Origin: a virus | Strand: one strand, 5' to 3' | DNA length: 52,139 bases | IMG/VR virus record: IMGVR_UViG_3300001598_000066 | Span: 1-52,139 of that record | In this document: positions 15,209 through 52,139 of the stretch, one piece after another | Layout of the letters: each line of letters starts with the position of its first letter | How positions within the stretch are numbered: position 1 is the stretch's first letter | The notes under the pieces: generated by a model | Told to the model about the DNA's origin: nothing | What the model saw: the letters and a program-made list of their open reading frames with translations, nothing else | Databases searched by the model: none | Program-made: the position numbers and the translations under genes

Positions 15209-16702
15209 ATGAAGAGTGCTGTAATATATGCTCGCTTTTCTTCTGATAGACAGTCCGAACTATCCATAGAAGCACAAGTGAGAGCTTGCAGAGAATATGC
15301 ACAAGGTAAAGGATATACTATTGAAGAGATTTACAAAGACGAAGCTATAAGTGGCAAGACTACAAATCGAGCTGCATATCAGCGAATGTTAAGGGATGCG
15401 AAAAAGGGAAAGTTCCAAACAATCCTTATCCACAAATACGATAGAATATCACGTAATCTTGGTGACCAAGTAAACCTTAATGCAAAGTTGAAGTCGCTTG
15501 ACATAGAACTAATTGCAACAGCTCAGGATTATGGTTCAAGTAAGGAAGGAAAGTTAATGACCGGGATTCAATGGATACTTGGAGAGTATTACATTGATAA
15601 CCTATCAGAAGAAGTAAAAAAGGGTCACAAGGAAATTGCTTATAAGGGATTACATAACGGAGGTTGTGCTCCGTTTGGATATGACATTGTAGACCAAAAG
15701 TATGTTGTTAATCCGGTTGAAGCTAGCTACGTTCAAAAGATATACTACTGTGCAATAAATTGTACAGGGTATAAAGAACTGTTAAAGGAAATGAATGAAG
15801 CAGGAATAGTTGGTAAACGTGGCAAGCCTTTACGCTATTCTTCTATATATGAAATACTGCGTAATGAAAAATACACTGGGACATACGTGTATTCAAGTGA
15901 TGAAGAGAAAGACCGGAAATTGCGTAGAGAAAAGCCCAACGCCATTAGAGTTGACGGAGCATTGCCAACAATAATTCCACGTGATGTATGGGAAAGAGTA
16001 CAAGAGATTATGGATGAAAAGAAGAGAACTAAAAGAGAATCAGATTATCTATGCTCAGGTTTAGTTTATTGTGAGTGTGGGGCCAAAATGCACGCACAAG
16101 TTTCCGCAAATAAAGGGCATACATATCATTACTACGTATGCTCAAATCATTGTGGGGCAAAAGCGGTTAAGGTGGAAACGGTTGATAAAATGGTACAAAT
16201 GTATCTTGATGAATTAACTAAACCTGAAATAAGAGAAACAATAACAAATGCTTTGAAAGATTCTGCAAGAGATAAACAAAAGTATCTTGATGATTTTATG
16301 GCTATGAAGCAGGAAAAGATAAATGCAAAGCAGGCCGAGATAAATAACTTGACATCGAACTTAGCAACAGCTTCTCTTCCTGAAACAGTTGTTAAAATTG
16401 TTGCAGAGAAAATCAAAGCTTGTCAGGAAGAATTAGACCATATTATGAAAGTAAAGCCAGTTATGGATTATACAATTGATACTGTTGGTGGTTGGCTAGA
16501 TGCAATGCTTTCAAAAGAGCCGGATGAATTACCACGATTCATCATTGATAGAATAGAAATAAAAAACAACTCAGCAACGATTATTTCTTCGTTATCTGAG
16601 TTGTTGGATGAACTTGGTTGCGGGGGTTCGCAATGTAGCGACCCAACAACATTGCTCCAGAAGATACCAATACAATATTTATACAAAGTCTACTATATAT
16701 AA
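15209..16702 (+). CDS. Large serine recombinase (integrase)
   Basis: N-terminal resolvase motif AVIYARFSSDRQ (catalytic Ser), a recombinase domain and a zinc ribbon (CSGLVYCECGAKMH...YYVCSNHCG), followed by a coiled coil. Confidence 0.9.
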   Translation: MKSAVIYARFSSDRQSELSIEAQVRACREYAQGKGYTIEEIYKDEAISGKTTNRAAYQRMLRDAKKGKFQTILIHKYDRISRNLGDQVNLNAKLKSLDIELIATAQDYGSSKEGKLMTGIQWILGEYYIDNLSEEVKKGHKEIAYKGLHNGGCAPFGYDIVDQKYVVNPVEASYVQKIYYCAINCTGYKELLKEMNEAGIVGKRGKPLRYSSIYEILRNEKYTGTYVYSSDEEKDRKLRREKPNAIRVDGALPTIIPRDVWERVQEIMDEKKRTKRESDYLCSGLVYCECGAKMHAQVSANKGHTYHYYVCSNHCGAKAVKVETVDKMVQMYLDELTKPEIRETITNALKDSARDKQKYLDDFMAMKQEKINAKQAEINNLTSNLATASLPETVVKIVAEKIKACQEELDHIMKVKPVMDYTIDTVGGWLDAMLSKEPDELPRFIIDRIEIKNNSATIISSLSELLDELGCGGSQCSDPTTLLQKIPIQYLYKVYYI

Positions 16703-28700: not shown

Positions 28701-31486
28701 TTGATGGTTTTGTCTTTATTGATTGGAGAAGTTTCAATGCTATCTTTTTCATAATTGGATGTAGCTTCTGGAACATCTGTTTCAGGATTCTCCCAATTTT
28801 TCATTGTATCGCTCAACCAATTCTCAGCATCGCTTTGCGATGTAAATTCAGCTCCATCAATGTGTCTATTGTTAGAATCTTTTATAGATACAATGTAGCT
28901 ATTTCCAAATTGACCCATATCGACTTCTATAATTTTGCCATTATACTTATCCCCATCAACTGACTTAACGGTTGTACGTTTTACATCGTAATTGCCATTC
29001 TGAGTATTTACTGAAACGTTACTAGGCGTTTTAGTATCGTCCTTATCGGATTCATCGTATTCTCCTGCACGTTGTTTTTCTTCTTCGGTAGCTTCGACAA
29101 GTTTCTGTTTTGATGTTAAATTGAATAAGAACTTACGGAAATGTTCCTCATTGTCATAATCATCTATTGTGTAACCACCAAGATATTGCTTAGCAAGTTC
29201 TCGCCAGTTTTCAATTCCCTGAGCTTTAGCATAAGCATCAGCATTAAAATGTTTAGGCTTCTTTTCTTCAACCTTTGGGGCAAAATGAGTAGCATCAATG
29301 GTCTCTCCACCAATGATATTGACAATATCGTTGTATGTTTTTGCAAGAGCTTCTTTATCTACAGGAATGTTTTCTTCGCCAGTCAAAACAGCTTTGAAGA
29401 GTTTGGAATTAACATCAAGCTTCATTCTATCAGCTTTTGTGATGTTATCACCCTTATTGAGAATATTAGCAACATCTTTTGCACGTGCTTCAATCTTGGT
29501 TGCAAGTCTCTTCTCAGCATTTTCGCTTCCACGCTGAATACCTGTTAATGTGTAAATATCGTATGTTCTCGTTTTAGCATTTGAGGTCTTAGGTGTTTTA
29601 TCAGATTCTTTATTAACTTCGTCAACGTTCTTCTTTATTTCGTATGGAGTTTCTATAACATTATTTATATCAACTCCACTTTCAGCTAATGCATTTGCCA
29701 ATCTACCAACTTCGTATCCTGATACAGTAGAGCCTGCATTGAGTCTTGCATTGATTTCATTTGCATACTCAAATGCTTCAGAATCCTTTGTTGTTTTAAG
29801 TCCCTCATTGACAAGTATCTGAATATTATCCTTTAGATTACCTCCACGACCGGTTGTCTGAGCTGTTGAATATAATGTGCTTGTTCCGCCCATCATAAGA
29901 CCAGACAATCCTCCAACAAGATAACTGTTCAAGGTATCTGCTGCAGCCTGTTGCCAATAATCAGATGTAAGCAAATCTTTCCATTCCGTATCGTTTACAT
30001 TAAACATAGGGTTGATTACAAATGAATCGATTATTGAACCTACAAGCTCTTCGAAAGCCTCACCCCTGAATGATGAAATGGCACTTGCAACATAATCTTT
30101 AATAGCTTCGCTTCCACCTTTGCGGAACATTTTATTAACAAGCTTTTCTGTAGTTCCCTCAAAGAAATCATCAAGAGTTGTACCCTTGCGACCAGATGCT
30201 ACATCAAGGAACGATGCTTGCGTTAATAGTTCTGTTGCGACTTCTTTTACAGCAACAGCAGTTCCGTATGATGCAATTGTCATAAGATTTGCATCATCTT
30301 TATTTCTTGCCTGTGTAGTCGCATTACCATAGGCCCTGAGATAAAAAGGAGTAAAATACGCTGCACTCTGAGATAGGCTCTCAGCGATATTAGTTACAAT
30401 CTGTTTAACCTTTTCTGGATTGCCTAAAGTCTTTCGTGCTTGCTTTGCAACTTCTTTTGTTGGCATAGCCCCTATGACTTCTTCAGCTTTAGAAAATTCG
30501 GGAGTTCCAAAAATGACTCTAGAGAATACTGCATCAAGTCCGTTTTCTATTACAGAGGATTCTGCTTGAATTAACTTCTGACCAACAACACCTTTGCCTG
30601 ACTGCGCATCCTCTAAATTCTTTTGTGCGGACTTTTCAAGGTTAGTATTTAATTCCTGCGTAGCTTTCAGAATTTTACTTTCTCCTGTTTTATCTTCAGA
30701 TTCTTTGTACGCAGAATTTACATTGTTATTAGTACCGTCAATGTTTTCTGCCGTATTAAAAGCATTGTACTTAATCTGCGCCTGAGAGAGCATTTGCTTA
30801 TCATATTCAAGTGTTTTTTCATCAGCTCCGTTGGCAACATCTTCATCACAAGTGTTCTTCCAGAAATCAACATCTCTTTTTGCACTTTCAGAAGTGCCAT
30901 TATAGATATTTTGTCTTGTTTCAGTTCCAGCCTGATAGTTTGTGGCGAATTTTCCAGACAACCCAGCCGCCCAATTCTTTATTGCAGATTTTGCAACATT
31001 GCTTTGAGTTTCTTTAAATTCGCTTGTATCAATGGAATTGCTTATAGGTACAGCACCGACAATAGCAGGATTAGACTTTGCTAATATAGTCTGTTTTGCA
31101 GTAGTATCCATATTCTGCGTATCAAGAGCATTGATGTTTATATTAGAAAAAGAGCCAACGGAGTTTTGTCCGTTGGCTTCATTTCTCTTGATATAAAAAT
31201 CATCAAGCTTTGAATCTCCATTACGAGTAGTTGCTGGAGATTCTGCATATTCATCTCTTGCATCTTCCGTAAATGCGTTTGTGCTATGTTCAGGTTCTTC
31301 TATAGTAACCTTTTTAGGGTTAGCTGTTATAGTCTGATTCTGTAATGTATTTACAAATACAGTTCCAGATTTAGTAGGGGTCTCGTTCTGTTTACTCTCA
31401 TTCTCAACAGGCTTTTGTACTGGTTTCTGAGTATCGGTGCTTGTAACCGATTTGCCTGTATTCTTGTTCACAAATGTTACAGACAT
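16736..31486 (-). CDS. Giant polyvalent protein (4,916 aa): N6-adenine DNA methyltransferase + SNF2/DEAH helicase + HExxH zincin + C-terminal TM-containing region
   Basis: Single uninterrupted ORF with RBS GGAGGAATAAAATG. Domain motifs are listed as separate features. Confidence 0.9.
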   Translation of the reverse strand: MSVTFVNKNTGKSVTSTDTQKPVQKPVENESKQNETPTKSGTVFVNTLQNQTITANPKKVTIEEPEHSTNAFTEDARDEYAESPATTRNGDSKLDDFYIKRNEANGQNSVGSFSNININALDTQNMDTTAKQTILAKSNPAIVGAVPISNSIDTSEFKETQSNVAKSAIKNWAAGLSGKFATNYQAGTETRQNIYNGTSESAKRDVDFWKNTCDEDVANGADEKTLEYDKQMLSQAQIKYNAFNTAENIDGTNNNVNSAYKESEDKTGESKILKATQELNTNLEKSAQKNLEDAQSGKGVVGQKLIQAESSVIENGLDAVFSRVIFGTPEFSKAEEVIGAMPTKEVAKQARKTLGNPEKVKQIVTNIAESLSQSAAYFTPFYLRAYGNATTQARNKDDANLMTIASYGTAVAVKEVATELLTQASFLDVASGRKGTTLDDFFEGTTEKLVNKMFRKGGSEAIKDYVASAISSFRGEAFEELVGSIIDSFVINPMFNVNDTEWKDLLTSDYWQQAAADTLNSYLVGGLSGLMMGGTSTLYSTAQTTGRGGNLKDNIQILVNEGLKTTKDSEAFEYANEINARLNAGSTVSGYEVGRLANALAESGVDINNVIETPYEIKKNVDEVNKESDKTPKTSNAKTRTYDIYTLTGIQRGSENAEKRLATKIEARAKDVANILNKGDNITKADRMKLDVNSKLFKAVLTGEENIPVDKEALAKTYNDIVNIIGGETIDATHFAPKVEEKKPKHFNADAYAKAQGIENWRELAKQYLGGYTIDDYDNEEHFRKFLFNLTSKQKLVEATEEEKQRAGEYDESDKDDTKTPSNVSVNTQNGNYDVKRTTVKSVDGDKYNGKIIEVDMGQFGNSYIVSIKDSNNRHIDGAEFTSQSDAENWLSDTMKNWENPETDVPEATSNYEKDSIETSPINKDKTIKEIEKYAKTLSKGRSEDTYWYKAVTNSSIYNDYLDNAIPYVKAMQGYYRLGLFGDDFNYDIDKDSRYGKQYAFHELDIPLSERAAKLAYDAGLRDRGVLEVEAKHDDAPIHYGDSRSILERVIEPNVFYRNLNSEGKSETYGESGMSPYELIDIVDKNNDLYFRFRDMPAKYSGREFYAKVSDYKDYTAQDIIESVNAKVGKNALGEHFADGVKAYYKKYVDNASNTGTSKDVSTNKIVYTGQSGINYTQSQIDALSKLSSDTLITMAESQYDRPYSMDGITEEQANALRNAGLMETETSQDGSTFEYINKEYIFDERARRLKESNESQTETPKGPTEIDVTGLFNGLKKAQGVANTTGEAQVVKLSDYKTESSDNGEVSSEAQGDLLDRLGTEILDRVDALDEIDIALTQKNLNINNADWKALEDIGVVADGELDATELKYKLKVNALKSESSETQTTTQDDLTNNDGNQIKEVDNTGDTIPDEDETDDAKLKIKQRSVSTDNITAIKDALLNGELKFEDFDIKGNVEGFSKEQQLSLIKAIIEGSNSKDGVIKTDIPYDGSFEINNNPNAISSVLDKLKAKYKQEPTIRDSVNKWISKSDKFSVIVSNGKYYLSDNYCAILSTKEEADAIIDNKDKYKKTNIRFDGSVERFDEILGQKMSIVENAPTEAELANGTKVYSFAKDLSSVFTKKYVDLLSDSQFFISDDTFGGCHYLYSKNADGEISGVALPIKAKELVNQKPSKLKSFSDKFKQEFAKRKNESESNNTDEGYKPQSVNKSESDKPTKNLTSESKLSNTSQKEKGNNEQQSNSGLHPISESGSVQQTETGRNSGIQSEAVAEQNVKQGDRHQGQAEGTVGADGGIQESTADRLPSINENDNAASSDGRGNGEGRGGRDNKGFVIENLPILKKSKTARFDANIKAIETLKQIQDEGRTSATPEEMEMLANFTGWGGLKNIFNSKTQADIERSDKLKDLIGKEAYNTAMQNGTMTAFYTPVEVAKTVYSVVKRMGFANGKILEPSCGTGIFLGTMPESMRDNGITAVELDSISGSIAKLLYPNADVTVSGFEKLNAPRESLDLIVGNIPFSKNFPVYDENFQYGKKAQDIHDFFVLKGLDLLKPNGVMAVLAPTSIMDEGSGTTVGGLIKEKANLITAFRLPAGTFGNTETVCDLIIFQKKSKSGYSVGTEFPSTAKLEVDGTNKTVSKFWIDNPNNVIGNFAIKSFGESRKDLIVEDDGRTIDEIVDMVPKNIISNAKQYEAAQQDADTTKALTNDEAFGKPTGTYIVKDGELYTVDGGELSKPFKRLQAKVDVLDEHGNQTFEDGKIVKERKKSYIQKGSKDYKRAIALTEIANAYLELARAQETFEEDADLQEYRDKLTKLYDDYTKNFKNSKNELGRIRDGASKEIFDGDPRYDMICALEQVKEVNGKKVYTKSDVFTKRTVNAIRNITSAETALDALFASININGNIDLEYMSELYGKSKEDILLELSDTIFEVPSLDENGTYIMAEEYLSGDVKSKLEEAKAMNEAYEEKYGIENKYDNQIKALESVIPKDIGAGDIKVQLGAAWIDEDTIADFAYDICGIEPDGSIKVTYDPTFSIWNVNTTRKSAAKWSAKGTSKDVDGVDILNAVLNHRRIELSISNPGGKPIPDTKGMENVQAKMDEMSEYFDSWAKKDVDRMYELVKLYNERMNRTVLRKFDTFMGKEQSFLKMPGSAINLRKHQVNAVYRMLTTPSTLLNHGVGAGKTFAMIGAAHEMKRLGMANKPLMVVPNHKLPDFVSDWYRMYPTANILAIDSSTWTESVRKKLLESIATNDYDCIIMRHSSFEKMPFTPEFEEAFYQERIDEANLALETAISNGVSERKLSGLKKRVQKYVAKLDELRSKSNKRTDDVVAFDNSGIDAILVDEAHNYKNLENFTAMDRIAGVSTGDAQKTTRMLMATKRIHQMNGKVVFATATPISNTMGEMYNMFRYLRPDLLEKYYMKSFDAFAGNFGNIVTRFEPNTTGTGIVAKQRFSKFVNIPELVKGFAEFTDTLTIDDIVANDPTFKIPKAELRHITSESSELLDMFNEYIESEKQRIKGMRPEDLKAEGINSLLLYGDAKAAALDLRLVMKILQNKGYLPSTLSPSALDFKGSKINKVVDNVFEEYKNSSDRSGTQLIFLDRGTPNKSAFTPQKTAQLEELLVKQEECEANGEELSANDKKKLDKLLEEQYGARYDFNLYEDIKRKLVAMGIPEHEIAFIQDTQGSNSDKKKEALFEKVRSGNVRILLGSTSMMGEGMNVQDKVVAVHHVDAPFRPSDVEQRNGRAIRQGNENDSVRIYMYSTENSYDAAMWNILDTKNKFISSVLHGDPTEREFEDLGTDDFANMSVEAANNPKMQRLAEVKAEIKKLETEQRNAENESIQYQRVIREFDSTKLNLEQRIAIYESAVSVLKDNPSNDVTIDGEVYDTFPAASNALLPIAQTLKVGESKVVGKFHGFDIVLYNDSKYEKGRYTLSIDGLRPTEFEPKVIQLTKENGGRYDADDTNLHYPLSSVFLRLNNSLNGTKSYSGIEDHLRNSQKALQYQQKRYDEAIANVENAGFKKGELLAKDKAERDSLIKELGESGSGKAINPFVQGLDMETIIEEEHQRRESAQPKQFNKTSTSSPSGIELMADVSTSDKVKNAMEKGKAKQKEKKAVKGPKQVSTGQLYAPKATPETSTKEIVKNANDLIKIVSKEFKVPIIRAGNFKKRRVLGYFIPDRGQIRLKEYNDLIVTFHEAGHKFDRQYKFSEVYEDDLQKIGKRFEQRVQNRYQNDPEKIRREAFAELFRLYCTNPAGAEEFDKGVGFIPKMEAAFSKEDMEKIKKVADLAQTYLNADPTKKAEASIKSRKDKPEDYRTFGQKVIDLTANVVEEFKALDEMNKEIGRLSGKYIKPKDNPFLKAQNARTSDAKASAIIESGMVAPNDDTFVDKSFISLLVPVKDNLTAFKAYLKNEHAIEWWNQGKQVYERSLNNIDTMLKMKATWEQEHPEFIETAQSIYDWYEKFQRMWLVDTGMVEEDLFDKLRALNPKYVSNARVIEGKDGKLRRDRFGDSNQFMFAKGSDYDTYDPIETMIYDINRIVKSEKNREVFKAMRDMFYDPETSEAMSMFIAEYEAGATKNTYDAQALKSKLEGELATVLHSKMTVDEAKQYYADKADPKIKKQLDEKYGVSDVTDAIENLVDDYIDFYTADYTTDRKDVFRVKSGDKVEMFVAVDPTLINMLEAMRDTSEMKAWMRAMSKLKRTMTTLTTGSNPLFALFSNPWRDAPLAYIKGSEANPVKAVRDWAVAIADVIKDSERYQAYKAAGIGYESVLSEDMSYMLDSIAKLNGFKGKSFKEGIKYGWKFLIREIENLNNLMETAPRLAEYTRSMNQLTEKGMDKESAVIVASRRAQEVTTDFSRKGSGKTVKDMSAIIPYFRAGINGLTDVYNAYKGKGAKYEGMSETEKQKVVKQTWIKSIIALTIPTIILAFAHRDDDEYDKLPDYYKNGYWILNKEWFGGNKGEFYRIPKPQEIGWLFSTTFDTVLRKVWNDEEDGGWALMNSFFDDVVPSYSTIIAPILDARSNRTWSGNKIVSSVFDDAMEAGEETPFGGYYNNVYDDTTSRLAVLLAKALPDIPSLGALNTPKGIEYVLKQYTGVIGQFALPATTPSKGLYGALSGIADRVSADTTYSNRYTNEYYTLKARSAGDKDNYESGRKSKYDENIYKLFNDTSDSAVQHLKDAGVKIPSGGKLDELAGYKDVSPETGKVTYGISPNKRLSELWKSIRETNNKPTLSREELIKGYHDEINAITQEMVEVYNDYQDGVRGTEKKYESLDLLDTLVKDSDGGEHQLSYNQYTKMMNTYEAKYYEYTNKLPSYDLSKEDKEEYKKKAKAYASVEAKNSAVNGLITTHDKYNGLDAKDVITYQAIIDNFDSDDNQSYNQDEVASAIRNMEAQGLDGHSCYLLFRAANSGWVKNERNNNPWYYYR
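18232..18285 (-). other. Predicted transmembrane helix in the giant ORF (about aa 4400)
   Basis: WIKSIIALTIPTIILAFA flanked by charged residues. Confidence 0.45.
20300..20560 (-). other. HExxH zincin-like metallopeptidase motif region of the giant ORF (about aa 3645-3730)
   Basis: LIVTFHEAGHKF (HEAGH at 20417-20431) with a downstream EAFAELF as a possible third ligand. Confidence 0.5.
21700..23570 (-). other. SNF2/DEAH-box helicase domain of the giant ORF (about aa 2640-3260)
   Basis: Walker A GVGAGKTF (23459-23482). ILVDEAHNYKN (22964-22987). Motif VI QRNGRAIRQGN (21764-21796). Confidence 0.8.
25130..25850 (-). other. N6-adenine DNA methyltransferase domain of the giant ORF (about aa 1880-2120)
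   Basis: Motif I ILEPSCGTGIFLG (25618-25644). Motif IV LIVGNIPF (GNIPF at 25442-25456). The motif order I then IV is gamma-class-like. Confidence 0.8.
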
Positions 31487-31500
31487 TTTATTCCTCCATT

Positions 31501-33429
31501 TTATTCAGAAATTGTATATCCAAGCTCCGCCAACTGAGCCAAAATTGCGTTCTTCTCAGCGAATGTTGTTGCCTCAGCGTAAGCATTTGCTAATTCTTGA
31601 GCCTTCATAACATCAGACATTGACTCATCGTTAAGAGCGTATTTCTCATTTACGATTGAGTCACCGACAACAGATGGTATTAAGCTCTGCTTACGAATAG
31701 TTGTTTGTGATACATACTTCTTATAAGCATCTTCCGCACTCAGGTTTCCAGCAGCCTTCTTTGTTGCAGGACCGTAAGAACCATCAATGTCACCTGTATA
31801 TGCACCACTAGCCTTTAATGCTTTCTGAAGTGCTACAACCTGAGATACAGAAGCAGATGTAGCTCCGTATGCAACGGTATTGATTGTAACGTTGTAATTA
31901 CCAGCATTTAATGTCTTAACTAACTCTCTCTGCTGTGAGGCTGAAAGCGTTGGATAAATACTGTTTACATCTTTCTGAGCTGTATCGTTAGATAACGATT
32001 TATTCTTTAATCCTGATAATACAGTATTGTATGTTGCTACGCTTTCAGAAGAATCTTCTTTAGAAGTCGTATCTTTCTTCTGTGTGCTATCATCAGTTGT
32101 TACAATCTGCTGTGCAACTTCATCGTCAGTATTATCTTCTTCATCCTTTGCAAGATAGCTTTCAGCTAATCCGAGAATTGCAATCAGCTTGTCAAGGTCA
32201 AATTCCTCAGCTTCCATCTTAGCCTGCATAATCTGAATAGCATCTTCCTTGCTGTTGTTCATAATATCGTATGCAAGTTCGTTTACATACTGATTCATTT
32301 CGCCTTCAAGGTTTGTTCTTGCTTCATATCTTGCGGCTTCTGTTACAGGCTGACCCATCCATCCACCACTTAAGGCGTTATTTACGATTGCATTATCAGC
32401 GTTCTTAAATGCTGTTTCATACTGAGGAGTATACATTTCCTTTGCATACGCATAAGATTCAGCCCAAGTAAGGAAGTCCTGAATTTCGGTAGTGTCTGTA
32501 AAGTTGTTGATAATTGTGTCGTACAACTGTTCAACAATTTCCTGATTAGACATCTCGGTAAGTGGAGTTTCCGTCTGCTGTTGTGTCTGCTGTTGCTGAG
32601 TAGGCTGCTGAGTAGGTGTAGTTGGAGTTGTAGTATCAACGGTTACTGTTGTCTGCTTATTAAGAGCGTTCTGAATAGAAGTTCTTGTTTCAGGACCAGT
32701 CTTTCCATCTACAGTAAGTCCATTAGCTTTCTGATACTGTTTAACAGCATTGGCTGTTTCAGTACCGTAATTTCCGTCAACAGCAATCTTATAGCCAAGA
32801 GAATTAAGTGCCTGCTGTAACTGTTTTACATCAGAGCTATTGTATATTCCCTGATACAGATTCTTTGACCAGGTGTATGTAGTTCCCTGATTACCTGAAG
32901 TAGTTCCACTTGCTGAAGTACCACCTGTAGTTGTACCTGCTGATGTTGTACCTCCTTTAGAGGTAACATAAGCATCACGAAGCCTATCGACTTCTGCAGC
33001 CATTGTGATATTTCCGTTTTTGGCATAATTGTCTCTTACTGTTGAAAAATCATTTGTTCCAGCCTTGTATGTTCCCCAAAGCTTTTCGTCCCATCCAGTA
33101 GGAGATGTAGTTGTTGCAACTGTTCCACCTGTTGTAGTTCCTCCTGTTGATGTTCCATTAGAACCACTACTTGATTCCTTAGACGAACCACCAGAACTAG
33201 AACCACCACTAGAGCTTGCTTTAGTTGCATTGTCATATGTAGTCTTATCAGTTACTGTGACCTTATCTCCTGTTGAACCACCAGAATATCCATAATTACT
33301 ACGAATATTGTTAGCTTCTTTATTTGCATCTGCCCAAGAGATTATTCCGGCCTTTGCTTCGTTTCTTAATGACTCAATTTTTTGCTGGTCACTTGTGCTT
33401 AATACAGAATCGCTTCCTATTACAGACAT
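31501..33429 (-). CDS. Protein with two peptidoglycan-binding (PG_binding_1-like) repeats and low-complexity linkers (642 aa)
   Basis: VKQLQQALNSLGYKIAVDGNYGTETANAVKQYQKANGLTVDGKTGPETR and VVALQKALKASGAYTGDIDGSYGPATKKA. Also contains S/G/T-rich and Q-rich tracts. Confidence 0.7.
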   Translation of the reverse strand: MSVIGSDSVLSTSDQQKIESLRNEAKAGIISWADANKEANNIRSNYGYSGGSTGDKVTVTDKTTYDNATKASSSGGSSSGGSSKESSSGSNGTSTGGTTTGGTVATTTSPTGWDEKLWGTYKAGTNDFSTVRDNYAKNGNITMAAEVDRLRDAYVTSKGGTTSAGTTTGGTSASGTTSGNQGTTYTWSKNLYQGIYNSSDVKQLQQALNSLGYKIAVDGNYGTETANAVKQYQKANGLTVDGKTGPETRTSIQNALNKQTTVTVDTTTPTTPTQQPTQQQQTQQQTETPLTEMSNQEIVEQLYDTIINNFTDTTEIQDFLTWAESYAYAKEMYTPQYETAFKNADNAIVNNALSGGWMGQPVTEAARYEARTNLEGEMNQYVNELAYDIMNNSKEDAIQIMQAKMEAEEFDLDKLIAILGLAESYLAKDEEDNTDDEVAQQIVTTDDSTQKKDTTSKEDSSESVATYNTVLSGLKNKSLSNDTAQKDVNSIYPTLSASQQRELVKTLNAGNYNVTINTVAYGATSASVSQVVALQKALKASGAYTGDIDGSYGPATKKAAGNLSAEDAYKKYVSQTTIRKQSLIPSVVGDSIVNEKYALNDESMSDVMKAQELANAYAEATTFAEKNAILAQLAELGYTISE

Positions 33430-34016: not shown

Positions 34017-34529
34017 TTACCTTTTATCCCTGACAACGAATTTGGTATTGCCGAAATAATCTTCGTGAGCATCTAAATGCAGGTATGTACCATATATATT
34101 CATACCACCAACACAATTATCTGCTTCACAGATTGCTTTCCATATACTTTCGATTTCGTATGCGAATTTATCGGTAATCTTAGGATGTTTAGAAAAGCTT
34201 GCATCAATAGCTTCATTTAATAAATGTAAACTATTTGATGAACCGTTTACTTTTGCATTGAATGTTTTTGTTCTATATCCGGAGTTAATATGAATAGGAT
34301 TGCCATATTCATTCCTTAGTAACTGATATCTTCTAACATCTTCTGCAAACGTGTCATTTAATAACATCTTAATTGATTCAGTTGCCTGATTATTTGCAAA
34401 CTCCCAAAGCTTGAAATTTGCTGATAAAGGATAATTAGCATCAATCGTCTTAACGTTGCATAAACTTATTTTCTTTCCAGACGGAAGAATTATATTATGG
34501 CTTATTTCAGTCTTTATCGTTGCCATCAT
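34017..34529 (-). CDS. Peptidase M15-type endolysin
   Basis: SGYRTKTFNAKVNGSSNSLHLLNEAIDA matches the M15A pattern SGYR...N..VGG...S.H..G.A.D. Confidence 0.75.
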   Translation of the reverse strand: MMATIKTEISHNIILPSGKKISLCNVKTIDANYPLSANFKLWEFANNQATESIKMLLNDTFAEDVRRYQLLRNEYGNPIHINSGYRTKTFNAKVNGSSNSLHLLNEAIDASFSKHPKITDKFAYEIESIWKAICEADNCVGGMNIYGTYLHLDAHEDYFGNTKFVVRDKR

Positions 34530-35297: not shown

Positions 35298-35540
35298 CTA
35301 CATATACTTCGCAATCTCTGCTCTTAATGTGGCTCTACCCTCTCGGTATTCTGCCATTTCTTCTTCAGTATATGCGCCTGTGTCTAACTGTTTAAGATTC
35401 TTCCAATCTCCATACGGCGAAACGCTTGATGATAACCAAGAGCGCAAAGCGTTGATTCGTGCTTGGCACATTTCTTCATGAGATACCGCCTCATTTTCTT
35501 CAATCATGTTAACTTCTGCGATGATTTCTTCTATTGTCAT
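35298..35540 (-). CDS. Small conserved tail-region protein (80 aa)
   Basis: ...SPYGDWKNLKQLD...YTEEEMAEYREGRATLRAEI. ATGA-coupled to the RT gene. Confidence 0.55.
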   Translation of the reverse strand: MTIEEIIAEVNMIEENEAVSHEEMCQARINALRSWLSSSVSPYGDWKNLKQLDTGAYTEEEMAEYREGRATLRAEIAKYM

Positions 35541-36679
35541 TTTAGACCTCCAAATAACTCTTGATATAAGCGGTCTAATTCCTTGACCGACCTATAAGCA
35601 TCAAACTGTAAGATATTGCCCCTCCAACTCCTATAAGCGTTGGCGATTTGTGACATTGATAGTTCCCCTCGTTCCAACAACCCTTTGTAGGCTTTTAGCC
35701 GTCTGCGCTCCCTTGTAAAAGACTTTGCGCTCGGTCTTTTGATGATATGCCCTGTCGGAGTTATGGAATACTTAATCTGCAAATAACTAAACCCTTTTGA
35801 GAGTTTTGTAATGCGAGTTTTATCATCGCTGATAAACAATCCCATTTCCCTCGCGGTTTCCTTAATCCCATCAAGAACCGATTTTAGAAACTCTTTGTCT
35901 TGATGAATGATGTAAATATCATCCATGTAGCGACCATAATACTTGCACCCACGAACACACTTGCAATAAGTGTCTATCTTCGTAGGATAGTAAATCCCGA
36001 CTATCTGCGATATTTGACTACCTATCCCCACCGAGCGATTCAAGAACTTCTGTTTTTCGTAGCAAGGCTCATATTTAAGCATATTGAACGGAACGCTCTG
36101 CGCATCCAAGTATTCTTCATCGGTCATATAGGAAACATCAATTTTGAATGTGCCGATTAAATACTCAAACAGTTCATAATCTTTAATGTGAGGCTTGACT
36201 ACTTCGCAAAGTTTTTCATGCGGAATATTGTCAAAGAACTTCGCAAAATCAATTTGCAGAATATATCCGTCTTGATGTTCCCTCAAGAACTTTGACAGAT
36301 GAGCGATTAGCCTTGACCGAGTAAACGATATGCCTTTCCCCTCTTGAGATGCTCCATTGTCATAGATTAGATACTTGCTCAATGACGGAGTTAAAACCCC
36401 ATCGCAGTATGCTCGTTGAATTACCCTGTCGCTGATATGTAAGGATTTAATTCGCCTAATCTTTCCACGCTCCCGAAGTGTGAACTCATAAAATGGCATT
36501 TGCCTATATGTTCCGTCTTTGAGAGATTTCTCTGCTTTGTAGATATTCCGCAGAAGATGCGCCTCATACTTTTGAACGGAGCATTTCCAATTAGAACATT
36601 GTTGAGCCTTATAAAATGATTCTATTAAGTTGTTTGCATTTATCTCGTTTATAGCCATACCTGACTTATCAAATGGCAT
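35537..36679 (-). CDS. DGR reverse transcriptase
   Basis: The DGR-specific motif IGSQISQ ([LIV]GxxxSQ) and the catalytic YMDD (YGRYMDDIYIIH). Located directly downstream of avd-TR. Confidence 0.9.
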   Translation of the reverse strand: MPFDKSGMAINEINANNLIESFYKAQQCSNWKCSVQKYEAHLLRNIYKAEKSLKDGTYRQMPFYEFTLRERGKIRRIKSLHISDRVIQRAYCDGVLTPSLSKYLIYDNGASQEGKGISFTRSRLIAHLSKFLREHQDGYILQIDFAKFFDNIPHEKLCEVVKPHIKDYELFEYLIGTFKIDVSYMTDEEYLDAQSVPFNMLKYEPCYEKQKFLNRSVGIGSQISQIVGIYYPTKIDTYCKCVRGCKYYGRYMDDIYIIHQDKEFLKSVLDGIKETAREMGLFISDDKTRITKLSKGFSYLQIKYSITPTGHIIKRPSAKSFTRERRRLKAYKGLLERGELSMSQIANAYRSWRGNILQFDAYRSVKELDRLYQELFGGLK

Positions 36680-36770
36680 CGGGATTAGATTTGTGCTTTC
36701 GCAAAGGGTTGCCTCTCCTTCCCAAGTTCCTCATTTCGTTTCATACTACTTTGATTGAGAAAATAGCAAT

Positions 36771-36886
36771 CAGGGGCGAACTCCATTAGAATTGGAGGCG
36801 TTGTTGTTGTTGGCATTGCCGTTGTTGTTGACATTAGCGAAGTTAGTGGAACTAGCTACTGCTCGCAACCACCAGTTAGCACGATT
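36771..36886 (-). repeat. DGR template repeat (TR)
   Basis: Starts at the avd stop codon. In coding sense it is rich in AAC/AAT and encodes RANWWLRAVASSTNFANVNNNGNANNNNASNSNGVRP. Homologous to 37374-37489 and 38217-38332. Confidence 0.9.
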
Positions 36887-37328
36887 AAACAGAATTGCGC
36901 CCTTGTATAACTTTAAGTATTTTATTATCTGACTTCTTCCAGTCTCTTAGTAACTGAGTTTCATGCGTAATCATATCCACATAGCGAACATATTTATTTA
37001 CGTCAACTGGTAAATTCGTCATGGCTCTCTGCATTATCTGCAGAAGGTATTCACAATCGCCGATGGCGTTCCATTGATACTGACGTCTAAAATAGAACTC
37101 TTGCTCGCTTGAAGCACATATTGTATTCGCATGAGTAATGTTAGAGAGTATACTCGCAAGTGTTTTCAAGACTTCATTCTTATAATAGTCAAGAAGCCAC
37201 TCAGGATATTCTTCGTCCTTTACTCCGAAGTTACGCTTTAATAACCCAGTTATTTCTTTGTCTAGGATGTAGAACCTGTGGAAGAATTCCAAGTTCGACA
37301 TTCCTCTTTCGCTCTTTGGTTTACTCAT
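36885..37328 (-). CDS. avd: Accessory variability determinant (Avd)-like protein
   Basis: 147-aa basic helical protein placed exactly between the target genes and the TR. Confidence 0.7.
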   Translation of the reverse strand: MSKPKSERGMSNLEFFHRFYILDKEITGLLKRNFGVKDEEYPEWLLDYYKNEVLKTLASILSNITHANTICASSEQEFYFRRQYQWNAIGDCEYLLQIMQRAMTNLPVDVNKYVRYVDMITHETQLLRDWKKSDNKILKVIQGRNSV

Positions 37329-37338
37329 CGTTTATTTC

Positions 37339-37353
37339 GCCGCACAAGGCGGC
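37339..37353 (-). promoter_or_regulatory. DGR target-site hairpin downstream of VR1
   Basis: GCCGC-ACAAG-GCGGC, 5 nt beyond the stop codon. Confidence 0.55.
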
Positions 37354-37357
37354 TCAA

Positions 37358-38146
37358 TTAGCCTATACAGATAAGCGGGCGAACGCCAAGACTGTTGGAG
37401 GCGGCGTAGTAGTCGGCAAGGCCGTTGCCGCCGACAAGAGCGAAGCGAGTGGAACTAGCTACTACTCGCAACCACCAGTCAGCACGAATTGACGGACTCA
37501 GGAAATTGAATATCGGTAGCTTCTCACACCCTTCTCCTACGTCATAAAAGGATGAACTGAACACAGTAGAGCCGTAAACCTGCACTTCTGTAAGCAGAGT
37601 AGCCTTAGCATCATACCAAGCCCATCCACTTGAAGCCCCAGTCCAACCCGCTCCAGCCATTGAGGCGCTAGAGTTTGTGGCGTTGGATAACAGAACTCTC
37701 CTATTACGCAGTCTGCTTCCAAGAGCGTTATTGAGAGCTGATACTACAGATGGTATTGTCGTAGTATTCATTGCTGAGCCGTAATATCCACCAGTTGTAA
37801 CATTGCTTGAGTTCATCTGAGCATTTAAGAGTGTTCCTTCGGGAATCAAAGATATATGATGGGTAGTCATAGCTGTGTCTCCCTTATTCCATTCGGTATC
37901 AAAACCAGCAATGAGCCACACTTTGTTATAGGTACCATCTTGAATTGTGATTTTATCTCCGAGATAGAGGTCTGTAAATTTTCCACTGGTTACGCCATGA
38001 GTCGTTAGGAATGTTCCGATGTTACTCGAATTTACGGTTCCTAAATCTTTACCTCTGTATATCCCATTATGATATGCGCCGTATTCTTCTGCGATAGGAT
38101 TAGCAACATCATAAGGAACTCCGTTAACATTTAATTTTGAGAACAT
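37358..38146 (-). CDS. DGR target protein 1 (CLec-fold variable C-terminus; receptor-binding candidate)
   Basis: C-terminus ...ADWWLRVVASSTRFALVGGNGLADYYAASNSLGVRPLICIG. Paralogue of 38201-38998. Confidence 0.85.
   Translation of the reverse strand: MFSKLNVNGVPYDVANPIAEEYGAYHNGIYRGKDLGTVNSSNIGTFLTTHGVTSGKFTDLYLGDKITIQDGTYNKVWLIAGFDTEWNKGDTAMTTHHISLIPEGTLLNAQMNSSNVTTGGYYGSAMNTTTIPSVVSALNNALGSRLRNRRVLLSNATNSSASMAGAGWTGASSGWAWYDAKATLLTEVQVYGSTVFSSSFYDVGEGCEKLPIFNFLSPSIRADWWLRVVASSTRFALVGGNGLADYYAASNSLGVRPLICIG
37374..37489 (-). repeat. DGR variable repeat VR1
   Basis: In the mutagenic stretch (TR 36801-36877) it differs from the TR at 18 positions. Seventeen are at TR adenines (coding sense) and one is a non-A change at 37464. 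Confidence 0.9.
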
Positions 38147-38178
38147 TATTTCTCCTTTCTTATAATTTGCTATATACT

Positions 38179-38197
38179 CGCCCGCACAAGGCGGGCG
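38179..38197 (-). promoter_or_regulatory. DGR target-site hairpin downstream of VR2
   Basis: CGCCCGC-ACAAG-GCGGGCG, 4 nt beyond the stop codon. The loop matches that of the VR1 hairpin. Confidence 0.55.
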
Positions 38198-38200
38198 GAA

Positions 38201-38998
38201 TTAGCCTATACAGATAAGCGGGCGAACGCCCAAACTGTCGGAGGCGTTGTCGTAGTCGGCACTGCCGCTGCCGTTGACAATAGCGAAGTAAGTGGAACTA
38301 GCTACCGCTCGCAACCACCAGGCAGCACGAATGCTTGGCGAGATAAAATTAAATACTGGCAGTTTTTCGCAGCCTTCACCAACATCGTAGAACGAGGAGC
38401 TACATACTGTACTTCCATATACTTGCACTTCTGTAAGCAATGTAGCTTTTGCATCATTCCAAGCCCATCCGCTTGCGTACCCTGTTAATCCAGCTCCAGC
38501 CATTGATGTTCCTGTAGTAGATGCCGCATTTGATAACAGTACTCTCCTATTTAGAAGATGAGTTGATAACGCATTGTTGAGTTTAGAAACAACAGTTGGA
38601 ATCGTTGTTGTATTCATAGCTGAGCCAGCATAACCTCCGCTAGTTGTGTTACTAGAGTTCATCTGAGCATTTAAGAGTGTTCCTTTAGGAATCAAAGATA
38701 CGTGATGGGTAGTCATCGCAGTATCACCCTTGTTCCATTCAGTATCAAAACCAGCAACAATCCAAGTCGCATTATATGTGCCATCTTGAATTACCACTTC
38801 GTCACCAAGATAAAGGTCTGTGAATTTACCACTTGCGACGTTATGGTCTGATAGGAAAGTTCCGATTGTAGCAGAGGATATAGTTCCTAAGCTCTTTCCT
38901 CTGAATATTCCATTGTGAGATAAACCGTAATTCTCTACAATTTCTTGGCTTATTTCGTGCGTAACTCCGTTAAGCCGAACGCTGTCTATTGCTGACAT
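38201..38998 (-). CDS. DGR target protein 2 (CLec-fold variable C-terminus; receptor-binding candidate)
   Basis: C-terminus ...AAWWLRAVASSTYFAIVNGSGSADYDNASDSLGVRPLICIG. Confidence 0.85.
   Translation of the reverse strand: MSAIDSVRLNGVTHEISQEIVENYGLSHNGIFRGKSLGTISSATIGTFLSDHNVASGKFTDLYLGDEVVIQDGTYNATWIVAGFDTEWNKGDTAMTTHHVSLIPKGTLLNAQMNSSNTTSGGYAGSAMNTTTIPTVVSKLNNALSTHLLNRRVLLSNAASTTGTSMAGAGLTGYASGWAWNDAKATLLTEVQVYGSTVCSSSFYDVGEGCEKLPVFNFISPSIRAAWWLRAVASSTYFAIVNGSGSADYDNASDSLGVRPLICIG
38217..38332 (-). repeat. DGR variable repeat VR2
   Basis: Twelve differences from the TR in the mutagenic stretch, all at TR adenine positions. Confidence 0.9.
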
Positions 38999-39007
38999 AG
39001 TACCTCC

Positions 39008-40483
39008 TTAACTAATTATTAAAGTGGTTCCTGATACTTGGAATATCTCTCCCACTAAATATAAAGTGTCATTTTGTACGAAGCATTCAATGTGCTCAAT
39101 TTTCGTATCGAGGCTGTCTTTGACGAGCTTCTCGCTTGGATAATGGGCATCATCGGGAACAGACTGAAACGCCGTAACTTTATTCGATGTATTTTCTTTT
39201 ACGCTAATTTCTTGACCCACAAAAGATGAGATTCCTCCAGCGGATTCTACTGTTCCTGTCGGGTCGAATACGGACTTCTTCATGTCGCCAGTAGCTAGAA
39301 TACTCGCTTGTTCGGCCCAGTACTTAGCGTTGTTGGTGTCTTCTCCTGTTCGTGTTCCCGTTCCTCCTACTGCCCATGACTCAGAGAGGGTGGCTTTCTG
39401 CTGACAGGTAACTAAAGCCGAAGCCGTTTGCTCTTTATAGTATTTAGCGTTATCTATATCTTCGCCAGTTCTTGCTCCTGTGCCACCTTTAGCATAGGAC
39501 TCTGAAAGAGTTGCCTTCTGCTGGGATGTAGTAGCGTAGCCACTGGACTGATTGGCTGAGTTAGATGCGTTGGTAGCATAGCCAGATGCAGATGTTGCTG
39601 AGTTACTTGCGGCTGTTGCAGAGTTTCCAGCATTAGTAGCGTATGTGCTTGCATTGGTTTCGCTTGCTTCTGCATTTGTTGCGGCAGTTTCTGCTCTTAC
39701 TGCAAGTGCTTCAAGAGCAGAAGTAACACTAGAAGAAAGCATTGCCATTGTTATACTGGCATTTCTAATATCAGCTTTTAATGTCTTTGAGCCATTGGGG
39801 TTAGTAGTGAGAGTTAAGTCAATAGTGTTTGTATCTTCTACGTTTATCGGGTTGAATAATGTGCTTACTGGGCATCTGCTTAATTCAACTGGTGGTACGC
39901 TTCTATCGTACAAAACAAGATAGTAACTACCACTTCCAACAGGGTCTTCAACTAATGCCATTGAACCGGGCACTTTTTCAATGTCTGTATCAATTGTATA
40001 AACTGTGCCACCCTGTGTTGTGAATGTAAATGTACCAGTACCAGATGCAAATGTTACTGTCTTAATCAGTAAGTTTGCATCTGCGATAGATTCCTTTAAT
40101 GCTACATTCTCAATGGTTTCTTTAGTGTCAATTACACTTTTAAGACCTTCCATTGTAGATTGAACATTAGTACCTACAACACCAGCAATAGTAGTGTTGT
40201 CTATCTGCCCAGCCTTTGTTGCGTGTGGATTAGCATTAGTTGTTCCAGCGTGTGTATATGCTGTTGCAACTTTTGCCTTCTCCGTATTGTCATAGTCGTT
40301 TGTGATTGTAAAATTAAGATTTCCTTTTGAAATACCACCTTGCTCACCTCCGGTATGTGTTACGTTTGGGTTGAACATTTTGTTAATTTCATCAAGGTCT
40401 CTTTCAATCATATCGGGGCCGCCTGTATCAACAGACGGTTCACCCGGTACGCCATTAAATTGTCTTTGTGGAAATACACTCAT
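39008..40483 (-). CDS. Tail fibre protein
   Basis: Ala/Ser/Asn-rich repeat ATNAEASETNASTYATNAGNSATAASNSATSASGYATNASNSANQSSGYA. Duplicated unit QQKATLSES[YW]A.GGTG.RTGED..NAKY. Confidence 0.75.
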   Translation of the reverse strand: MSVFPQRQFNGVPGEPSVDTGGPDMIERDLDEINKMFNPNVTHTGGEQGGISKGNLNFTITNDYDNTEKAKVATAYTHAGTTNANPHATKAGQIDNTTIAGVVGTNVQSTMEGLKSVIDTKETIENVALKESIADANLLIKTVTFASGTGTFTFTTQGGTVYTIDTDIEKVPGSMALVEDPVGSGSYYLVLYDRSVPPVELSRCPVSTLFNPINVEDTNTIDLTLTTNPNGSKTLKADIRNASITMAMLSSSVTSALEALAVRAETAATNAEASETNASTYATNAGNSATAASNSATSASGYATNASNSANQSSGYATTSQQKATLSESYAKGGTGARTGEDIDNAKYYKEQTASALVTCQQKATLSESWAVGGTGTRTGEDTNNAKYWAEQASILATGDMKKSVFDPTGTVESAGGISSFVGQEISVKENTSNKVTAFQSVPDDAHYPSEKLVKDSLDTKIEHIECFVQNDTLYLVGEIFQVSGTTLIIS

Positions 40484-52040: not shown

Positions 52041-52139
52041 TAGGAAGATATAGATAGAAGGGTGGGTGCTTTGTTTGTTTGCCCCCCTGCCCTTCCTTTA
52101 TAGAAAATCGTATAGTGGATATATGATTTTGGATATAGA
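52041..52139 (+). repeat. Terminal direct repeat, right copy
   Basis: Identical to 1-99. Consistent with the assembly overlap of a circular molecule or with a short direct terminal repeat. Confidence 0.95.

Follow-up and report, generated by a model that had tools for sequence, protein, structure and literature searches.

The closest described system is the diversity-generating retroelement (DGR) of Bordetella phage BPP-1 (mtd-avd-TR-brt), in which one target gene, encoding Mtd, is followed by an accessory gene, a template repeat (TR) and a reverse transcriptase (RT) gene. The BPP-1 DGR RNA contains, in order, a stem-loop, a tetraloop hairpin with adenosines, and a long 3′ hairpin; it also forms an avd:Sp duplex of 11 bp with a bulge, and breaking this duplex abolishes cDNA synthesis (10.1101/2023.10.23.563531). 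In the BPP-1 target, a GC-rich segment and then a GC hairpin come after the variable repeat (VR), which lies at the 3′ end. A hairpin of this kind is needed for homing, and shortening the 8-bp stem of BPP-1 by 2, 4 or 6 bp leaves homing markedly lower (Guo et al. 2011, PMC3240598). A second precedent comes from gut phages nd4 and nd12, where Baykov et al. 2023 (PMC10743442) described DUF6273 DGR targets (“target2”). Finally, multi-target DGRs, with tandem arrays of up to eight, were reported by Wu et al. 2018 (PMC5758913).

The window, meaning the whole 52,139-nucleotide stretch of viral DNA analysed here, very probably carries a canonical DGR of the BPP-1 type, located among the tail and lysis genes of a temperate phage whose 52-kb genome is complete. 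The type of system is already known and this is a clear example of it, the sole unusual trait being a tandem duplication of the target. A reading made earlier from the sequence only (hereafter the sequence-only reading) had proposed the order target 2, target 1, avd, TR, spacer and RT, and had recognized in it the logic of BPP-1. Both proposals hold. All components lie on the minus strand, and the cassette is complete: a single TR with its two VRs, plus genes for a DGR-type RT and an Avd-like accessory protein. The features are as follows.

38201–38998, minus strand: target gene 2 (ORF, 265 aa), a predicted DUF6273-type tail-associated protein
38236–38332, minus strand: VR2 variable part, register TR +1446, within the last ~32 codons of target 2
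38199–38237, minus strand: putative IMH-like 3′ segment of VR2, stop codon included, differing from the TR at non-adenine sites
38179–38197, minus strand: GC-rich hairpin after VR2, CGCCCGC-CTTGT-GCGGGCG, 7-bp stem, DNA fold z = -3.3
37358–38146, minus strand: target gene 1 (ORF, 262 aa), paralogue of target 2 with 75% aa identity
37395–37489, minus strand: VR1 variable part, register TR +603
37356–37394, minus strand: putative IMH-like 3′ segment of VR1, stop codon included, differing from the TR at non-adenine sites
37339–37353, minus strand: GC-rich hairpin after VR1, GCCGC-CTTGT-GCGGC, 5-bp stem, DNA fold z = -2.2
36885–37328, minus strand: Avd-like accessory gene (147 aa), between the targets and the TR
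36891–36906, minus strand: segment upstream of the TR, expected partner of the spacer (counterpart of the BPP-1 avd:Sp “cPRT Stop” duplex)
36774–36886 (3′ end approximate), minus strand: TR, with an adenine-mutagenised core at ~36886–36792
36791–36774, minus strand: IMH*-like part of the TR, including GGAGTTCGCCCC
36644–36773, minus strand: structured spacer RNA 3′ of the TR, from an alignment of 40 loci
~36768–36727, minus strand: first stem-loop of the spacer
36718–36702, minus strand: spacer strand of the long-range duplex
36703–36688, minus strand: 3-bp UGC/GCA stem with a GAAA tetraloop, then adenosines
36680–36644, minus strand: long 3′ hairpin of the spacer, overlapping the RT start codon
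35537–36679, minus strand: DGR-type RT (380 aa), starting at M1 (36679) or M8 (36658)

By its sequence, the RT is of the DGR type. It matches RVT_1 (7e-17) and PHROG 1423 (1e-66), and its best PDB match and closest solved structure is the RT of BPP-1, bRT (8ub7, E 3.6e-18). The IGSQISQ and YMDD signatures pointed out earlier are both present in the 380-aa ORF and align with IGSLTSQ (shared pattern IGxxxSQ) and YMDD of bRT, while R75 and I219 align with bRT R74 and I181. Three lines suggest that the accessory protein is an Avd: its fold, the place of its gene in the cassette, and a single weak PHROG match (PHROG 3206, “Avd protein of DGR”, E 9e-4). An AF2 model of the protein is a helical bundle (pLDDT 92.7) whose top fold matches, 2rld, 2gsc and 4dwl (Avd, TM 0.61/0.80), belong to the Avd/23S-IVS family, all of them weak with Foldseek E > 0.04. 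No Pfam or PDB sequence match was obtained for any of the 57 members of its family; the accessory protein thereby escapes Pfam’s Avd family, unlike BPP-1 Avd.

Both targets end in WWLR...GVRPLICIG, as had been noted, and adjoin an upstream ORF (39008–40483) that matches tail-fibre PHROGs, which bears out their proposed location next to a tail fibre gene. The “CLec-type scaffold” read from these C-termini fared less well, as any resemblance to C-type lectins and the C-terminal domain of Lcl is slight and confined to 30–70 C-terminal residues; predicted structure instead places the targets among DUF6273-type phage tail and receptor-binding proteins. The AF2 model of target 2 (pLDDT 93) retrieved DUF6273 and receptor-binding proteins from BFVD (E 1e-25 to 1e-4, TM <=0.82), and the best PDB fold match was an IgA peptidase, 9qa6, which has a DUF6273 N-terminal domain. 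Direct Pfam matches to DUF6273 (PF19789) scored 18.6 and 21.3 bits against a gathering threshold of 23.5 and involved the C-terminal part only; several of the 2266 target homologues carry PF19789. Moreover, target 2 is 34% identical to the tail fibre/structural protein ORF23 of Lactobacillus phage JCL1032. Neither sequence nor fold searches revealed homology to Mtd, and the targets were assigned to the DUF6273 type and not to Mtd; in this they differ from the BPP-1 target. They resemble the small nd4/nd12 targets, which are single-domain DUF6273 proteins of 234–294 aa with a C-terminal VR, encoded in the phage tail module where one TR serves two target genes (PMC10743442). The two targets of nd4/nd12 differ in architecture, however, a tentaclin with an N-terminal VR being paired with the small C-terminal-VR protein, whereas those of the window are tandem paralogues of one architecture. 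The paralogues are probably receptor-binding proteins and may be part of the virion.

Homology between the TR and the VRs starts at 36886, at the avd stop codon (TAA, 36887–36885), where the sequence-only reading had the TR begin. Its 27 adenines in 36801–36877 were recovered on recounting that 77-nt stretch, and the claimed richness in Asn codons is real, at 14 in-frame AAY codons (the first overlapping the avd stop) where 13 had been counted. With this codon design, stop codons cannot arise by adenine change, and about 10^16 to 10^16.5 protein variants are possible per VR. The TR core (36792–36886) comprises 95 nt, 31 of them A. VR1 departs from it at 18 positions, 17 of which are TR adenines and one a C>T change (TR 36861, VR1 37464), exactly as first described. 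VR2 departs from it at adenines only, again as described, and at 14 positions (14/14) in place of the 12 reported, 36885 and 36793 having been overlooked. Fisher’s exact test upholds this adenine bias against an even spread over the TR bases (VR1, p = 1.5e-9; VR2, p = 1.3e-8). Non-adenine core comparisons of the TR with both VRs gave one mismatch, in VR1, among 128. An AAY-rich TR and adenine-specific TR-to-VR differences are likewise features of BPP-1. Searching with the TR skeleton (N at adenine sites) returned three copies in the window, namely the TR, VR1 and VR2, with none expected by chance.

The repeat behaves differently over its final ~20 nt (36791–36771), where the two VRs have non-adenine mismatches to the TR in common; for example, 36791–36789 is TTC in the TR and CAG in both VRs. 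This indicates that adenine-specific transfer stops near 36792 and that the remainder is IMH/IMH*-like. The final 32 nt of the IMH-like segment (38230–38199 in VR2) are the same in VR1 and unlike the TR. Each is followed by its GC-rich hairpin, an arrangement shared with BPP-1, although the loop is a 5-nt CTTGT in the window and a 4-nt GRNA in BPP-1. Candidate target-recognition elements, an IMH-type segment and a GC hairpin, thus occur at the 3′ ends of both VRs and are lacking at the TR, after which DNA folding found no GC hairpin. By analogy with BPP-1, these elements would serve in homing.

Comparison of the two targets clearly demonstrates that rewriting of both VRs from the TR postdates the divergence of the paralogues. 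Outside the VR, the same codon is used for 48% of identical residues, third-position identity is 46%, and nucleotide identity is ~70% overall and 54% at the 5′ end, with codon indels; the intergenic sequences differ as well. Within the last 46 codons, same-codon use reaches 89%, and in the TR-matching stretch all shared residues but one (Leu, CTT vs TTG) have the same codon. Such heavy silent divergence outside the VR, together with near-identity off the TR adenines inside it, means that the two genes had already parted when the TR sequence was copied over each of them. Between VR1 and VR2 there are 15 differences, all but one at TR adenines (14 sites), and these, along with the concerted evolution, support the earlier proposal of independent diversification. 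A further step, that both paralogues are virion receptor-binding tips diversified independently by one TR in spite of an interrupted RNA duplex, is put forward tentatively. The main reading of the cassette takes its mechanism from BPP-1 by analogy: the RT and its Avd-like partner would bind an RNA that runs from the 3′ end of the Avd-like gene through the TR and across the structured spacer. The bound RNA would be reverse-transcribed with misincorporation opposite template adenines, and the cDNA would then replace the ~95-nt C-terminal coding stretch of either tandem target. What marks each target for homing would be its 32-nt IMH-like 3′ segment, the same in both, and its CTTGT-looped GC-rich hairpin.

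The spacer RNA has no match among Rfam families. Its elements follow the order of those in the BPP-1 DGR RNA, and the long 3′ hairpin shows compensatory changes at 13/13 pairs in the 40-locus alignment. At about 91–130 nt, the spacer is shorter than that of BPP-1, and its 3′ hairpin overlaps the RT start. A duplex between the upstream segment and the spacer covaries among 39 relatives, where a median of 12/12 positions pair, compared with 8/12 for non-cognate pairs. Unlike that of BPP-1, the duplex of the window is interrupted, at 7/12 pairs without gaps; allowing gaps yields 11 bp in three short helices (-11.7 kcal/mol), no better than shuffles. No other partner for the upstream segment was found within 800 nt. 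These observations raise the possibility, which we consider unlikely, of a relic cassette, inactivated recently, whose VRs were rewritten formerly and which ceased mutagenic homing when its DGR RNA lost the contiguous long-range duplex. The necessity of the duplex for cDNA synthesis in BPP-1 (10.1101/2023.10.23.563531) would favour such a loss, as would the one non-adenine mismatch and the 5-bp hairpin stem of VR1. Nevertheless, the RT ORF is intact and keeps all catalytic motifs, and the interrupted 11-bp duplex could still form, the BPP-1 duplex being itself 11 bp with a bulge. The TR core is also free of non-adenine damage relative to the VRs save at the single VR1 site in 128, and this near-absence implies that inactivation, if it occurred, was very recent. 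In the main reading, the element may still be active.

Related loci provide a broader view. The relatives comprise 162 loci found through RT similarity, of which 81 (80 from IMG/VR plus L081) were fetched first. Among these 81, adenine-biased TR/VR pairs in the same layout number one in 64 loci and two in 2, and a hairpin lies 3′ of the VR in 76/81 and 3′ of the TR in 0/81; the stems vary and the CTTGT loop is recurrent, the loop of both window hairpins also occurring in 23 related loci. An Avd-like homologue sits between target and RT in 145/162 loci, and the target family is present in about 125/162. The whole cassette, with its hairpins and spacer RNA, is thus conserved over more than 100 related loci.

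In contrast to the multi-target DGRs (PMC5758913), the RT clade of the window has 118 related loci in which a target homologue occurs, and a second tandem target copy in 0/118 of them; dual targeting is accordingly not typical of the clade. Even in two relatives with a second VR 4–5 kb away, tblastn found no second target-family copy there. It is on this account, and because the hairpin stems are unequal (5 bp vs 7 bp), that one might envisage a single live VR, the other belonging to a duplicate that keeps its pre-duplication signature or undergoes occasional gene conversion. This is quite improbable, since the genes, with ~50% silent-site divergence, parted long ago and a pre-duplication signature would have decayed like the flanking sequence, yet both VRs match the TR off its adenines (bar the C>T of VR1). 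Furthermore, VR1 and VR2 differ at 14 adenine sites, their IMH-like segments are identical and the hairpin loop is common to both.

An artefact of assembly, in which two strain variants of one hypervariable gene were placed adjacent, is an extremely improbable origin for the tandem pair: DGR VRs and repeats do often break or confuse metagenome assemblies, and a Logan contig of the same RT stops inside the TR, but the targets differ over their full length (5′ ends, codon indels and all) where DGR-made strain variants would differ in the VR alone, their intergenic sequences and hairpin stems are unlike, and a terminal repeat of 99 bp closes the contig.

Should both paralogues indeed be receptor-binding tips diversified from one TR, the phage population would explore two receptor specificities simultaneously, and it is conceivable that combinatorial host-range variation could follow. 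This capacity would have originated in a target duplication that is absent from all 118 relatives in which a target homologue occurs. Moreover, the RNA requirement would be looser than the BPP-1 model suggests, the duplex being essential in BPP-1 and interrupted in the window.

Searches of IMG/VR, metagenome contigs and GTDB genomes turned up no second copy of the phage carrying other VRs. The only other assembly found, the independent one from Logan, is identical, including the 3′ half of the TR. No GenBank phage showed a close nucleotide match to the window. No tail type could be assigned to the phage, and “podovirus-like”, as the sequence-only reading put it, is at most a candidate label. 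Finally, its capsid protein is 26% identical to counterparts in Arthrobacter and Microbacterium phages.

The diversity-generating retroelement (DGR) lies entirely on the minus strand, and its components, as defined by ORF listing and, for the repeat, by repeat finding and alignment, are the following:

38998-38201, minus strand: target2, 265 aa
38146-37358, minus strand: target1, 262 aa
37328-36885, minus strand: Avd-like ORF, 147 aa
36771-36886, then at +603 and +1446, minus strand: repeat, three copies of ~115 nt, in register
36679-35537, minus strand: reverse transcriptase (RT) ORF, 380 aa, with IGSQISQ and YMDD

The three copies are the template repeat (TR) and the variable repeats VR1 and VR2 at the 3' ends of target1 and target2. 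Within the TR core, to which the exact mismatch count was restricted (36792-36886; 95 nt, 31 adenines), TR adenines account for 17 of the 18 VR1 mismatches, the other being a C>T at 37464 (Fisher exact p = 1.5e-9), and for all 14 VR2 mismatches (p = 1.3e-8). Compared directly, the two VRs disagree at 15 sites, of which 14 are TR adenines. When the TR adenines are replaced by N, the resulting skeleton is found in the window three times, at the TR, VR1 and VR2, where zero matches are expected. The TR carries 14 in-frame AAY codons, none of its codons is able to mutate to a stop, and its codon make-up permits ~10^16.5 protein variants per VR. The sequence-only reading had thus correctly recognized a complete DGR from its RT, TR and two adenine-biased VRs; its VR1 numbers and its count of 27 adenines in 36801-36877 were exact, and its adenine-only pattern for VR2 holds, but its count of 12 VR2 mismatches was slightly too low.

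The history of the two VRs can be read against their flanks. When target1 and target2 are aligned by codon outside the VR, third positions are 46% identical, the same codon is used at 48% of identical residues, and nucleotide identity per 15-codon window lies between 0.53 and 0.82. Over the last 46 codons the same codon is used at 89% of identical residues, and the exceptions all lie upstream of the TR homology, save for one Leu codon. Moreover, of 128 comparisons between the TR and the two VRs at non-adenine sites, 127 agree. A VR dating from before the duplication and left unchanged would have decayed like its flanks. The combination of diverged flanks, TR-identical non-adenine sites and VR differences at adenines therefore points to past, independent rewriting of both VRs from the TR, and it is the strongest single-sequence evidence for this, with no bearing on present activity. 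In our judgment, the element is very probably a DGR that has rewritten both of its VRs.

The adenine-specific pattern does not extend to the end of the repeat. In the final ~20 nt, non-adenine differences from the TR are common to both VRs. At 36791-36789, the TR has AAT-TCT and the VRs have AAC/GAC-AGT, serine being encoded by TCT in the former and by AGT in the latter; the codon that follows is AAT in the TR and a Leu codon in each VR, CTT in one and TTG in the other. VR1 and VR2 are then identical over 32 nt, from GGCGTTCGCCCGC to the stop codon inclusive, and the TR is unlike both. These shared differences place the end of adenine-specific transfer near 36792. By analogy, the remainder of the repeat looks like the IMH (VR) and IMH* (TR) pair of BPP-1, the Bordetella phage with the mtd-avd-TR-brt DGR.

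The RT matches RVT_1 in Pfam (E 7e-17) and PHROG 1423 (E 1e-66), and its closest solved relative is 8ub7, the 328-aa bRT of BPP-1 (E 3.6e-18). The alignment pairs IGSQISQ with IGSLTSQ, YMDD with YMDD, R75 with R74 and I219 with I181; R74 and I181 of bRT contact the incoming nucleotide (10.1101/2023.10.23.563531). An 80-aa ORF on the minus strand (35298-35540) overlaps the RT stop codon (ATGA) and was also called in the identical contig of another assembly, Logan SRR1221442. No homologue of it was found in any other related locus, and it was excluded as a component of the element because of this lack of conservation.

The 147-aa ORF is considered Avd-like on the basis of its fold, its position and one weak match to PHROG 3206 ('Avd protein of DGR', E 9e-4). 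AF2 models it as a helical bundle (pLDDT 92.7), for which the best Foldseek matches, all with weak E-values, are 2rld, 2gsc and 4dwl (BPP-1 Avd; TM 0.61/0.80). Weak Foldseek E-values are usual for helical bundles, and 2rld and 2gsc represent the 23S-IVS/S23 family, which includes Avd. An Avd-like homologue lies between target and RT at 145 of the 162 related loci found via RT similarity, and clustering of the family at 50% identity gives 534 clusters. Comparison of the protein and 57 family members with Pfam and PDB sequences gave no meaningful match. The window's copy is ~35 residues shorter N-terminally than most relatives (P0126-P0274).

The region between TR and RT, described in the sequence-only reading as a 91-nt spacer, is in fact part of a ~130-nt structured element. 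An Rfam scan of the whole window found no match, the minimum-energy fold of the whole 231-nt DGR RNA was no better than shuffles (z = +0.76), and the structure was revealed by comparative analysis only. Forty loci were aligned over the stretch that begins at the 3' end of the TR and runs into the RT gene. They show a conserved layout that opens with the TR end (GTYCGYCCC-GATTT) and a first stem-loop whose stems covary; next come a strand GGAGAG-N5-TCC and a hairpin of 2-3 bp, in many cases with a GNRA loop, then UAAAU and a linker; a long hairpin, GAYGC...GAUAMGUC...GCUAUAAACG, closes the series. From the MAFFT alignment, RNAalifold retrieved the 3' hairpin alone, with compensatory changes in 13 of 13 pairs; the first stem-loop was detected by per-sequence folding and by eye. 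In the window the long hairpin occupies 36680-36644 and thus spans both candidate RT start codons, the annotated one at 36679 and the in-frame ATG that follows at 36658, so that the RT may start at either. The element order matches that of the BPP-1 DGR RNA solved by cryo-EM, which runs from an Avd-binding stem-loop through a primer strand, the avd:Sp 'cPRT Stop' duplex, a small tetraloop hairpin with A-minor adenosines and a thumb ring to a bRT-binding stem-loop (10.1101/2023.10.23.563531).

A long-range duplex formed by a 12-nt spacer strand in related loci was tested directly. In 39 relatives, the partner segment lies 11-22 nt upstream of the cognate TR, and the median pairing is 12/12 positions, compared with 8/12 for non-cognate combinations, which constitutes covariation across 33 distinct strand sequences. 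In the window (36891-36906 with 36702-36718), pairing in the relatives' register without gaps is 7/12; with bulges allowed, 11 bp form in three short helices at -11.7 kcal/mol, a value matched by 18% of shuffles, and no better partner for the spacer strand occurs within 800 nt. The middle of the window's upstream strand, CGCAA, resembles the spacer strand's GGCAA and not its complement. In BPP-1, disruption of the duplex abolishes cDNA synthesis (10.1101/2023.10.23.563531). The interrupted duplex is the sole feature arguing for attenuation or recent loss of activity, and a relic, in the sense of a recently inactivated element, is an unlikely reading of the cassette as a whole.

A second group of features follows the VRs:

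37353-37339, minus strand: VR1 hairpin, GCCGC-CTTGT-GCGGC, 5-bp stem, DNA-fold z -2.2
38197-38179, minus strand: VR2 hairpin, CGCCCGC-CTTGT-GCGGGCG, 7-bp stem, DNA-fold z -3.3

Each is GC-rich and sits shortly past the stop codon, and DNA folding of the TR 3' flank found no comparable hairpin. The two do not look like intrinsic terminators, since neither is followed by a T-run. Of the related loci, 81 distinct ones have a detectable TR/VR pair, and in these a perfect GC-rich hairpin occurs within 70 nt past the VR in 76 cases and past the TR in none. Stems vary, and CTTGT is the commonest loop (23/76); one sub-clade has GATA, GTAA or GCAA, and two loci have ACAAG, the reverse complement of CTTGT. 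Homing in BPP-1 requires such a hairpin/cruciform, in which the structure of the stem matters rather than its sequence and the loop is sequence-dependent (Guo et al. 2011, PMC3240598). The 5-nt CTTGT, most frequent in the window's clade, differs from the 4-nt GRNA loops of BPP-1-like phage DGRs, and the 5-bp VR1 stem falls below the reported 7-10-bp range (PMC3240598). That just one of the two VRs is a live target is rather improbable, and rewriting of both remains the preferred account.

Both targets match Pfam DUF6273 below threshold in their last ~40 residues, and some members of their family (2266 matches) carry PF19789. Several 90%-identity clusters of the family hold tens to hundreds of sequences each. 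The target2 AF2 model (pLDDT 93.3) has no PDB match at E 1e-3; the top match (E 6e-3) is the Thomasclavelia ramosa IgA peptidase 9qa6, whose N-terminal domain is DUF6273 (PMC12402451). Fold similarity to several C-type lectins and to the C-terminal domain of Legionella Lcl is confined to 30-74 C-terminal columns, and the family profile found no match among PDB sequences. In BFVD, gut-phage proteins labelled DUF6273, 'Receptor Binding Protein' or 'Tail-collar fiber protein' match the fold strongly (E 1e-25 to 1e-4, TM up to 0.82). By tblastn, ORF23 of Lactobacillus phage JCL1032, a tail fibre/structural protein, is 34% identical to target2, and the 491-aa ORF upstream of the targets matches tail-fibre PHROGs.

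The tandem pair is almost certainly no assembly artefact, because the codon alignment shows the paralogues differing along their entire length. Among the first 81 RT relatives fetched, 64 have one VR and two have a second VR 4-5 kb away; of 118 loci where a target homologue occurs, none shows a second tandem target copy within the DNA examined there. Gut phages with two DUF6273-containing targets of unlike architecture have been described (Baykov et al. 2023, PMC10743442), and tandem arrays of up to eight targets are on record for DGRs at large (Wu et al. 2018, PMC5758913). Tandem target duplication is thus rare in the clade, yet not new in kind. An Acholeplasmatales MAG, L163 (1526-2275, 8408-11610), holds four tandem target-family paralogues and one nearby, all five with hypervariable-looking, VR-like C-termini, followed in four of the five by CCGGAAACCC...GGGTTTCCGG hairpins whose 11-nt loop is present both as AGTATTCATGC and, in the opposite orientation, as GCATGAATACT. 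As there is no RT within 10 kb, the paralogues may be remote DGR targets.

Among the known ways in which phages hypervary chosen proteins, DGRs are the main one, and gut and rumen viromes commonly contain cassettes of the present clade, with a DUF6273 target, Avd-like gene, TR and RT. The present case adds little conceptually; its value is that a single TR supplies two diverged paralogues in a genome that is clean and complete, and in which diverged flanks beside TR-homogenised VRs make the rewriting of both readable from one sequence. It could provide a compact model for how a DGR chooses between targets with hairpins of unequal strength, whether it needs the upstream:spacer RNA duplex as strictly as BPP-1 does, and whether two diversified tips on one virion widen host range. 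DGR annotation could also gain from the CTTGT loop, a covarying spacer RNA without an Rfam family and an Avd-like family missed by Pfam.

Searched by nucleotide sequence, GenBank phages gave no match to the cassette, and skeleton searches for sister genomes with other VR states gave 0 matches each in IMG/VR, metagenome contigs and GTDB genomes. The sole other assembly with the same RT, Logan SRR1221442, is identical and terminates within the TR. Relatives are mostly metagenome and virome contigs, with one target homologue from Anaerovibrio sp. RM50 and several from an Acholeplasmatales MAG. An exact 99-bp terminal direct repeat (1-99 and 52041-52139) indicates that the genome (39% GC) is probably complete, and either circular or terminally redundant. 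It encodes a large terminase subunit, a portal, a major capsid protein, only 26% identical to Arthrobacter and Microbacterium phage capsids, and an M15 endolysin (34017-34529); no tail type, podovirus or other, could be assigned from PHROG and Pfam matches, which leaves the sequence-only reading's 'podovirus-like' a tentative label. Two further features stand out:

15209-16702, plus strand: large serine integrase
16736-31486, minus strand: 4916-aa polyvalent protein ORF, 28% of the 52-kb genome

The integrase suggests a temperate lifestyle. A 642-aa Ser/Thr/Gly-rich protein (31501-33429, minus strand), separate from the M15 endolysin, matches several endolysin PHROG families and may be a virion-associated lysin. 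Finally, the 4916-aa ORF, directly downstream of the lysis genes and adjoining the integrase, combines LPD38, ResIII/SNF2 helicase and Eco57I-like methylase domains in a 'polyvalent protein' architecture.
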